Positions 13,347-15,026 of a stretch of 32,000 bases of DNA are shown here, piece after piece (positions within the stretch are counted from its first letter, which is position 1; each line of letters begins with the position of its first letter). This stretch comes from Patescibacteria group bacterium. GTDB lineage: Bacteria > Patescibacteriota > Patescibacteriia > UBA2591 > UBA6264. The stretch lies in assembly GCA_028713575.1 (NCBI GenBank), contig JAQTOB010000007.1:6523-38522 (forward strand), read 5' to 3'. The notes beneath the pieces were generated by a model. That model did not search any database, was not told the DNA's origin, and worked only from the letters and a program-made list of their open reading frames with translations. Position numbers and translations under genes: made by a program.

Positions 13347-15026
13347 ATGGAAAGAAATAAACTTTGGACAATTTTCGCGATTATTTGTTTTCTCTCTTTA
13401 TTGGCTTTTTTAATCGTTTATCCGACCATTCCGGAATGGGTGCCGGGTTATAAATTGTTTTCTCGGCCAAAAATTCATTTAGGCCTGGACTTGCAAGGAG
13501 GAACTCAATTAATTTATGAAACAGACACTTCAGACATTCCTGACGACCAAAAGGTTGCGGCCGTGGAAGGAGCGCGAGATGTAATTGAAAATCGCGTTAA
13601 TGTTTTTGGTGTAACCGAACCATTGATTCAGACCTTGAAAAGCGGAAAAGAATGGCGTTTGTTGGTAGAATTGCCTGGGGTTCAAGATGTTCACGCCGCC
13701 ATTGAAATGATTGGAGAAACGCCAATTCTGGAATTTAAAGAACAAGGCTTGCCGCGCGAATTAACCACTGAAGAAAAAGAGCAAATTATAAAATATAATG
13801 AACAGGCTTTATTAAGGGCAGAAGAAGTTTTGAAACAGGCGTTAAAATCAAGCGCTGATTTTGCTCAATTAGCCAAAGAATATTCAGAAGATTCCGGTTC
13901 TGGTCAAAACGGAGGAGATTTGGGATGGTTCAGTCGGGGGACCATGGTTCCGGAATTTGAAAAAGCGGCTTTTGACGACTTATCCGTAGGAGAAATCACT
14001 TCTTCTTTAGTAGAGACCGATTTCGGTTATCATATTATTAAAAAAATTGATGAACGGATTAAAGAACAACAGTTGAAAGTAGAATCAGAAGATGTTGAGG
14101 GGATACAAATTCAGGCTGAACCGGAGAAAGAAGTCCGGGCCAGCCATATTTTAATTGCTACACAATCAATTGAAACAGCGCAAGGAATTGAGTGGCAATA
14201 TACGGGTTTGACCGGCAAGCAACTGAAGAGTTCTTTTGTTTCTTTTAACTCGCAGACCAATGAGCCGGAAGTTTCTCTGGAATTTAATGAAGAAGGAGCT
14301 AAATTATTTAGTGAAATAACCAAGCGCAATATCGGCAAACCAGTTGCCATTTTTTTAGATGGGTTGATTTTAAGCGTACCTATGGTACAAGAAGAAATAC
14401 CCAGCGGTCAGGCCGTCATTTCAGGGACTTTTGATTTAAAAGAAGCTAAAGAATTAGCACAAAGATTATCAGCCGGAGCCTTACCCGTGCCCATTAAATT
14501 AATCAGCCAACAAAATATTGGTCCGAGTTTAGGTCAGGTTTCGGTAAAAAAGAGCTTTATGTCCGGAATTATTGGGTTTTTGGTAATCATAATTTTTATG
14601 ATAAGTTTTTATAAAAAAAGAGGATTGATTGCCAGTTTAGCCCTTTTTATTTATGCCTTGATAGTTTTAGCCTTATTTGAATTAATTCCCGTTACTTTAA
14701 CTTTAGCCGGGATTGCCGGATTTATTCTTTCTTTGGGGATGGCTGTTGATGCCAATGTTTTGATTTTTGAAAGAGTTAAAGATGAGGAAGCATTGGGGAA
14801 GTCGCCTTTAAGCGCCATTCACGACGGTTTTAAAAACGCCTGGACTGCCGTTCGCGACGGCAATATTACCACTTTGATTGTCTGTTTTATCCTTTATTAT
14901 TTTGGAACCGGCCTGGTGAGAGGATTTGGATTAACCCTGGGATTGGGCGTTTTAATCAGTATGTTCACGGCTATTACCGTGACTAAAAATTTTTTGGAGT
15001 TAATGATTTCGTCTGATAAAAATTGA
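13347..15026 (+). CDS. secD: Protein-export membrane protein SecD carrying an inserted parvulin-type PPIase domain
   Basis: SecD elements: [35 protein letters not shown]...SVP, [19 protein letters not shown], and a C-terminal TM bundle. Residues ~133-271 instead match the rotamase signature ([24 protein letters not shown]...FEKAAF...FGYHIIKK ... VRASHILIA). Confidence 0.9.
   Translation: [559 protein letters not shown]

Follow-up and report, generated by a model that had tools for sequence, protein, structure and literature searches.

A SecD protein of the Patescibacteria with an inserted and very probably circularly permuted parvulin domain

In a 32,000-nucleotide stretch of DNA from a Patescibacteria group bacterium (GenBank assembly GCA_028713575.1, contig JAQTOB010000007.1, positions 6,523 to 38,522 of the forward strand; hereafter the window), we analysed the gene secD, whose product belongs to the SecDF motor of the Sec translocon, together with a parvulin-type peptidyl-prolyl isomerase (PPIase) domain that is encoded within this gene. 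The window protein is almost certainly a bona fide SecD bearing an inserted parvulin, and the strand order of the parvulin is very probably circularly permuted. Taken as a whole, the data make it likely that the permuted domain was inserted into the extracytoplasmic P1 region, at the connector between P1 base and P1 head, where it would most likely serve as an active PPIase or chaperone module.

The parvulin domain and its SecD host

The whole protein scored 387.1 bits against TIGR01129, the SecD equivalog of NCBIfam (cut-off 244.4), and its best solved relative is Thermus SecDF (3aqp_A, E 9.6e-85). When the full-length AlphaFold2 (AF2) model was searched with Foldseek, SecDF crystal structures ranked best. 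Pfam, AF2 and Foldseek revealed the SecD architecture, with an N-terminal transmembrane (TM) helix, P1 base and P1 head, and a C-terminal five-helix bundle. In the P1 base, Sec_GG at amino acids (aa) 42-62 reached 19.2 bits, slightly below its cut-off of 20.3, and the Pfam family SecD_1st matched aa 74-132 (E 1.5e-16, profile positions 2-57 of 60). TM helix and P1-base elements are thus present as described in an earlier reading of the DNA letters (the original prediction). SecD_SecF_C covers the TM bundle at aa 383-553 (E 3.6e-13, profile 13-186 of 189). Within the bundle, D468 aligns with D340 of Thermus SecDF and is invariant in the 91 homologues on which we based our conservation counts; D340 is reportedly functionally essential and part of the proton pathway. 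That is, the features of the motor are kept: the P1 head, the TM aspartate D468 and an adjacent secF gene. The elements of the locus are as follows.

13347..15026, + strand: secD open reading frame (ORF), 559 aa; matched by TIGR01129, by Thermus SecDF and, through AF2 and Foldseek, by SecDF crystal structures
13350..13418, + strand: N-terminal TM helix, aa 2-24; hydrophobic sequence, AF2 helix H2-24
13470..13742, + strand: N-terminal part of the P1 base, aa 42-132, with the final strand PILEFKE; Sec_GG, SecD_1st and AF2 strand E128-133
13767..14063, + strand: parvulin core α1-α2-(α3)-β2-α4-β3-β4, aa 141-239, containing D182, L192, M200, F204, T224 and H229; Rotamase_3, predicted local distance difference test score (pLDDT) 85-98
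14064..14123, + strand: variable acidic loop from β4 to the putatively displaced β1, aa 240-259, pLDDT 51-58; proposed junction of the old domain termini
14124..14159, + strand: putatively displaced parvulin strand β1, aa 260-271, with H267; strand pLDDT 92-95, conservation, de-permutation test
14160..14201, + strand: return connector to SecD, aa 272-285, with the final strand WQY before LTG; strands of the insert-only model
14202..14489, + strand: intact SecDF P1 head, aa 286-381; PF22599, aligned to Thermus SecDF from residue 160 onward
14493..15005, + strand: SecD TM bundle, aa 383-553, including the invariant D468; SecD_SecF_C
15147..16031, + strand: secF, the separate partner gene, 120 bp downstream of secD; SecD_SecF_C E 3.9e-54, Sec_GG E 6.5e-08

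The parvulin lies within nucleotides 13743-14159, which correspond exactly to aa 133-271 of the secD ORF. Rotamase_3 (PF13616) matched aa 149-236 with E 8.5e-26 (91.2 bits versus a cut-off of 22.5, profile 31-115 of 116), and Rotamase (PF00639) matched aa 149-234 with E 6.2e-23 (82 bits versus 21.7, profile 13-96 of 97). In native order, the Rotamase_3 match lacks the first 30 profile positions, the N-terminal quarter of the model. These scores are far above threshold, and the Pfam scan, which supplied boundaries and E-values, both bears out the originally predicted parvulin in SecD and excludes the scenario of a segment free of any rotamase match. Among sequences of solved structures in the PDB, the insert matched SurA, PrsA, PpiC and Pin1 (E 1e-16 to 1e-8).

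The site of insertion is located between the base strand LEFK (aa 128-131) and the LTG motif (aa 288-290). From LEF to LTG we counted 156 aa in the window SecD, versus about 43 in Thermus SecDF (residues 117-159) and about 35 in Escherichia coli SecD. In an AF2 model of the insert alone (aa 127-288), both the entry segment (aa 131-133, model strand E5-7) and the exit segment (aa 283-285, model strand E157-159) are strands, which is consistent with a two-stranded stalk in which we infer the two to pair with each other.

With these boundaries, two statements of the original prediction had to be revised. It had placed the parvulin where SecD normally has its mobile P1 head, and had taken the usual LTG...VSLEFN...KPVAIFLDG block to lie behind the head. 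This block is itself the P1 head: SecDF_P1_head (PF22599) scored normally at aa 286-381 (E 1.4e-30, profile 19-114 of 114). Replacement of the head by the parvulin is therefore ruled out.

We also compared the protein with the known extracytoplasmic parvulin proteins. An identity as PrsA was rejected: the models PRK03002, PRK03095 and PRK02998 gave 63.7-65.5 bits versus cut-offs of 343-361, the parvulin part alone was matched, and its flanks are SecD P1. PpiD (PRK10788, 46.9 bits versus a cut-off of 493) and SurA (PRK10770, 54.3 bits versus 394) were rejected as well, the chaperone module being absent in both comparisons. Of the proposed PrsA-type rotamase, the homology of the parvulin cores holds; the chaperone domain that flanks the core in PrsA is missing, and the protein stays below every PrsA, SurA and PpiD cut-off.

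Since the window derives from a metagenome-type genome, an artefact of assembly or gene calling, by which secD and an independent prsA-like gene became joined, has to be considered. But the ORF is uninterrupted and has SecD sequence on both sides of the insert, the GC content is uniform across the gene, and a variant that differs in a single residue (A542T, protein P0001) is encoded on an independent contig. Further, all of the best 120 protein clusters (53-100% identity) combine Rotamase and SecD families; their named sources read 'protein translocase subunit SecD [Patescibacteria group bacterium]'. In a survey of one genome per GTDB species, tblastn confirmed at least 223 matches among 600 candidate stretches, from many studies. 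The survey of orthologs proposed with the original prediction thus found the insert to recur, and recurrence in hundreds of independent assemblies excludes the chimeric assembly that the prediction had named as its own refutation. We consider the chance of an artefact negligible.

Eighty loci, each from a different species genome, were examined among the confirmed matches. They were assigned to the groups Falkowbacteria, Magasanikbacteria, Buchananbacteria, Uhrbacteria, Kuenenbacteria, Komeilibacteria, Kerfeldbacteria, Veblenbacteria, Nomurabacteria and 'Parcubacteria', names that belong to the Parcubacteria group within the Patescibacteria group of the NCBI taxonomy. Two of the loci are on closed chromosomes (CP181398.1 and OY970357.1). 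In every locus with complete sequence, GYH(I/L)(I/L) is followed by xxHILx in this order. The fusion is clade-wide in a large branch of the Patescibacteria. A search of representative proteins with aa 120-300 was dominated by multi-parvulin proteins, in which repeated domains add to the score, and gave no usable count of fusions. Many contigs with a SecD of the Candidate Phyla Radiation (CPR) type are titled 'uncultured Gammaproteobacteria bacterium' (third-party annotation, TPA; L001, L002, L005-L007 and others), and L018 is titled 'Lysobacteraceae bacterium'; these titles are likely placeholders or labels of mis-binned contigs.

Strand order of the parvulin domain

Canonical parvulins have the linear order β1-α1-α2-α3-β2-α4-β3-β4. 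In the window SecD all of these elements are present, yet β1 comes after β4: the motif at aa 262-271, which resembles the xVxASHILV strand that normally opens the domain, follows FGYHIIKK (aa 226-233) and stands 25 residues beyond the last parvulin strand. We re-ordered the sequence and compared profile scores. The core alone (aa 141-240) obtained 92.0 bits against Rotamase_3 (profile 33-115). With aa 256-273 placed in front of the core, the score rose to 103.8 bits and the match extended to profile positions 13-115, and PF00639 was covered from 1 to 96 of 97. As a control, the reversed strand did not improve the score (92.2 bits, profile 31-115). When the region was artificially duplicated in tandem, the highest-scoring single match began at β1 of the first copy and ended at β4 of the second.

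Pairwise alignments gave analogous results. The de-permuted sequence and the PPIase domain of human Pin1 aligned end to end (Pin1 residues 49-163, 37% identity), so that H267 corresponds to H59 and H229 to H157; the Pin1 segment opposite the displaced strand is QGEPAR-VRCSHLLVK, which includes VRCSHLLV. In native order, only residues 75-161 of Pin1 were matched. With domain P2 of SurA, the de-permuted sequence aligned from EVHARHILL onward. The position of the strand behind the rest of the domain, as originally noted, is thus beyond chance by the re-ordering test, and the proposed permutation gains from the fuller coverage of profile and Pin1 alike. At 37% identity to Pin1, and with the PrsA model scores given above, the 'almost residue for residue' match to PrsA was an overstatement.

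The displaced strand is conserved. H229 is a histidine in all 91 homologues and H267 in 88, the three exceptions being double-domain variants; in the same strand, L269 is invariant, I268 is kept in 89 and S266 in 85 homologues. D182 of the YSED motif, which we take to be equivalent to D74 of Par14 and C113 of Pin1, is Asp in 86 homologues and Cys in three (P0103, P0108 and P0112). Natural parvulins alternate between Asp and Cys at this catalytic position, with Cys in Pin1 and Par10. L192, M200 and F204 of the proline pocket are conserved as well, and T224 is either Thr or Ser. The catalytic His/Asp/His set anticipated from the sequence was therefore retrieved across the family. The spacing from His to His varies between 15 and 49 residues and is 37 in the window protein, the behaviour expected of a surface hairpin loop that joins the old termini. 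Close relatives of the window protein have a long acidic β4-β1 loop too.

The insert-only AF2 model reached a mean pLDDT of 90.8 and a predicted template modelling score (pTM) of 0.81, with a pLDDT of 94-95 for aa 260-271. Its elements follow one another as α1 (25 residues), α2, β2, α4, β4 (13 residues), a loop and a 12-residue strand, the last being aa 260-271. The full-length model showed the same order, and here the loop at aa 241-259 had a pLDDT of 51-58.

Several observations weigh against permutation. The strand raises the scores only moderately, by 6-12 bits. We infer the three-dimensional contact of strand 260-271 with β4 and β2, and likewise the geometry of H229 and H267. When the insert-only model was compared with the PDB by Foldseek, the Bacteroides PPIase 8hm4/8hm3 was the best match (E 7e-7 to 5e-6, query TM-score (TMq) 0.51-0.57), PrsA followed at an E of about 0.05, and small single-domain parvulins were not listed. 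These modest matches may reflect an aligner that depends on sequence order and is applied to a permuted fold. With the full-length model, Foldseek returned SecDF and resistance-nodulation-division (RND) transporters only, leaving the insert unaddressed. Finally, gap artefacts prevailed in a mean-field covariation analysis of 193 family sequences, a sample too small for the purpose at an effective number of about 139; the weak partners found for aa 260-271, at low power, all belonged to the parvulin and none to the head.

If there were no permutation, the insert would be an N-terminally truncated, three-stranded remnant, strand 260-271 would belong to the SecD hinge or head, and its likeness to xVxASHILV would be a coincidence or a relic. 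In favour of this view, positions 1-18 of the P1 head profile are unmatched, so that region 260-271 could supply a head element, and the Foldseek matches to canonical parvulins are weak. But the strand adds its bits and full profile coverage in the correct orientation only, H267 and L269 are as strongly conserved as core residues, and the strand is confidently modelled within an insert that contains no head. The weak covariation partners point the same way at their low power, a parvulin deprived of β1, the central strand, would hardly be expected to fold, and the double variants described below lose the His of the equivalent strand together with the β4 His of the first core. We judge a truncated remnant to be quite improbable.

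The double variants comprise 11 SecD sequences of about 685-716 aa (loci L061, L067, L072, L073, L076, L077, L078 and L079; proteins P0101, P0115 and P0117) with the layout core1 - strand a (β1a) - core2 - strand b (β1b). Their second domain occupies the β4-β1 loop, which in the window protein is merely long and acidic. In core1 the β4 His is lost in all 11 sequences (N, E, S, Q, D or V instead), and in strand b the β1 His is lost in 10, mostly to Arg. The His residues of strand a and of core2, on the other hand, are each kept in 11 of 11, and the Pfam scan recognises strand a and core2 together as one complete parvulin of canonical order (profile 1-93 of 97). Since the His residues are kept or lost in pairs, core1 would be completed by strand b, the same pairing as in the permuted single domain. 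These sequences suggest a nested arrangement, with an active parvulin of canonical order inside the β4-β1 loop of a permuted, degenerate one. The double forms fell into four places of a rough neighbour-joining tree that was built from the SecD parts and has unresolved deep nodes. Both cores of one double variant are 40-53% identical to single-domain cores, and core identity consequently did not separate an internal duplication from the acquisition of a foreign parvulin.

Other variants were found besides. P0153, a single-chain SecDF of 905 aa, carries the same permuted insert with a long Gly/Val/Glu-rich β4-β1 loop; the insert is thus present in both split and fused forms of the motor. Long-loop versions occur among the representative proteins, too. 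In two single-domain genomes the β1 His is replaced (L055 Glu, L080 Gln) and the β4 His kept, and L055 has GGLYS where others have GGDLG. Judged by these substitutions, the L055 and L080 lineages may be losing catalysis.

We hold permutation to be very probable because profile test, pairwise alignments, conservation, AF2 models and double variants agree.

Possible function and genomic setting

In model organisms, according to work by Tsukazaki and Furukawa as summarised in PMC7793623, the SecDF motor runs on protons or sodium ions; its P1 head takes hold of the polypeptide as it emerges, swings and pulls it from SecYEG. In the structure that we propose, the permuted parvulin would stand on a short stalk at the base-to-head connector, on the outer face of the membrane and beside the substrate-binding P1 head. 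Placed there, the domain would present a folding catalyst to chains during their extraction from SecYEG. The chain of SecD would enter the domain at α1, run to β4 (FGYHIIKK), pass the variable hairpin and come back as β1 before it continues into the intact P1 head. The old termini would be joined by the β4-β1 hairpin and the new ones would be neighbours in the β1-α1 loop, a mutual adjacency that suits the insertion of a domain. In Pin1-type enzymes the β1-α1 loop borders the substrate cleft, and the cleft would thus be expected near the SecD hinge. The parvulin probably binds emerging Xaa-Pro segments; it would speed up their isomerisation, keep them from sliding back, or do both.

Since catalytic and proline-pocket residues are conserved, the insert is most likely an active PPIase without phospho-specificity or a chaperone module. 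On the other side of the balance, conserved 'catalytic' residues are no guarantee of activity, the parvulin domains of PpiD and SurA domain 1 act without PPIase activity, and any contact with translocating chains or movement with the head is presumed. The insert might accordingly be a non-catalytic module which, like PpiD or SurA domain 1, holds or scaffolds substrates and enlarges the binding surface of P1. The degenerate outer parvulin of the double variants is kept even though both His are lost, which speaks for a role of the fold independent of catalysis and suggests, as far as sequences can tell, an additional structural or binding role of this outer domain; PpiD, the best-documented SecD-associated parvulin protein, works as a chaperone; and the replaced β1 His of L055 and L080 fits in as well. 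But both His, the Asp/Cys position and the hydrophobic proline pocket are nearly invariant in single-domain members, whereas inactive parvulin domains typically lose their catalytic residues. The double variants, moreover, always keep one complete His set, as expected for a maintained active site. A purely non-catalytic module thus seems unlikely to us.

Of an active PPIase that is also functionally coupled to translocation, we would say that the chances are about even. In its fullest form, the idea is that an active foldase sits in the hinge of the moving P1 head, that proton-driven pulling is mechanically coupled, within one polypeptide, to prolyl isomerisation or holding, that these reduced genomes need no separate foldase of the PrsA or PpiD type, that this is the first natural permuted parvulin and that the double variants are nested parvulins. 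We offer this combination tentatively, as something possible that we would sooner doubt than assert.

A full-text literature search, with many subscription papers outside its coverage, found no description of a SecD-parvulin fusion, a permuted parvulin or nested parvulins. In automated annotation, these proteins already carry both Pfam domains; their sources name them SecD.

How folding factors receive proteins from the Sec channel on the ATP-free trans side of the membrane is still poorly understood. The link between SecDF and PpiD in E. coli rests on crosslinks and genetics, and that between Sec and PrsA in Firmicutes is mostly inferred. A parvulin covalently joined to the P1 hinge of SecD throughout a clade is independent evolutionary evidence for a foldase at this site. 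It amounts to a clade-wide natural experiment on the coupling of translocation and folding, besides being a curiosity of protein topology, and it offers a simple single-polypeptide system in which to study both processes together. To protein engineers it would offer an instance from nature in which a parvulin withstands circular permutation at the β1-α1 loop and can accommodate an entire extra domain in its β4-β1 loop. The fusion can also mark, at the sequence level, a large group of bacteria that are uncultivated and depend on hosts, and to whose lifestyle surface and secreted proteins are central.

The neighbourhood of secD is ordinary chromosomal DNA of low GC content (about 29-42%). Up to secF, the gene order in the window is pgk, eno, two genes for cofactor-independent phosphoglycerate mutase (iPGM), a hibernation factor, secA, a Fic-domain gene, a small deaminase, secD and secF. 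Beyond secF follow a glycosyltransferase, murJ, lepA, three tRNAs, topA, dprA, murG and hrcA-grpE-hsp20-dnaK. No rotamase domain was found in the other window ORFs that were scanned. One further Sec gene lies upstream of secD.

8843..11629, + strand: secA; translation typical of SecA with the C-terminal CPCGSGKKYKHCCG motif, judged from the translation

The two iPGM genes after pgk and eno are neighbouring paralogues (4608-6236 and 6477-8060; iPGM_N plus Metalloenzyme). Between secA and secD, the Fic-domain protein (11726-12754) is followed by a short ORF resembling cytidine/deoxycytidylate deaminases (12901-13281), which has a TTG start and a profile match that begins at position 24 of 102. 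As mechanically called, the divergent genes dprA (25678-26505, - strand) and murG (26396-27490, + strand) share about 110 bp of 5' sequence, and one of the true start codons is probably further downstream than called. Two tRNA-Met(CAT) genes (22724-22795 and 22899-22973, - strand) lie about 100 bp apart beside tRNA-Leu(CAA) and presumably are initiator/elongator or tRNA-Ile2-type copies.

Comparison with known systems

With the SecDF of Thermus (3AQP, 5YHF), that of Deinococcus (5XAN) and E. coli SecD (5MG3), the window protein shares TM1, P1 base, P1 head, the five-helix bundle, the TM Asp and a SecF partner. The difference lies between LEF and LTG, where the 35-43 or so residues of Thermus and E. 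coli contrast with a whole parvulin domain in the window SecD. SecD and SecF are separate genes in the window, whereas P0153 joins them in one chain.

PrsA of Bacillus subtilis and other Firmicutes (4WO7, 5HTF, 6VJ6) is likewise an extracytoplasmic, membrane-tethered and non-phospho-specific parvulin that acts on proteins emerging from Sec, and its parvulin cores are homologous to the insert (E about 1e-15 to 1e-16). But PrsA is a separate lipoprotein, with a parvulin of canonical order inside an N/C-terminal chaperone domain. In the window protein there is neither chaperone domain nor lipobox, the strand order is permuted and the host is SecD.

SurA, a soluble periplasmic chaperone of diderm bacteria, has two parvulins of canonical order in a chaperone module. 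Its domain 2 (1M5Y) is the best PDB sequence match of the de-permuted domain, with EVHARHILL versus EVRASHILI at β1.

PpiD, which is found with YfgM in E. coli and Vibrio, is a parvulin-containing protein that is anchored in the membrane at the Sec translocon. Crosslinks connect it to Asp-359 in the P1 head of SecD, and late translocation of VemP depends on both PpiD and SecDF, neither of which can stand in for the other (PMC7793623). The original prediction had read the fusion as a 'Rosetta stone' that links translocation to folding, and this reading fits both observations; the fusion would be a covalent version of such proximity. PpiD itself is not part of SecD; it has a TM anchor of its own and a large chaperone domain, and its parvulin domain is considered to lack catalytic activity, while the window insert keeps the catalytic residues.

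In Mycoplasma pneumoniae, the parvulin-bearing lipoproteins Mpn444 and Mpn436 crosslink to SecD and have been proposed to fold chains that leave the translocon (bioRxiv 10.1101/2024.09.05.611430). These surface proteins of a minimal, wall-less bacterium are very large and exist independently of the SecD chain. As an analogy, trigger factor at the ribosomal exit follows the same design principle of a PPIase or chaperone at the mouth of a polypeptide-conducting machine. It belongs to the FKBP family, is cytoplasmic and docks non-covalently. Among these systems, the functional design of the SecD-parvulin fusion resembles a PpiD-SecD or PrsA-Sec pairing made covalent.

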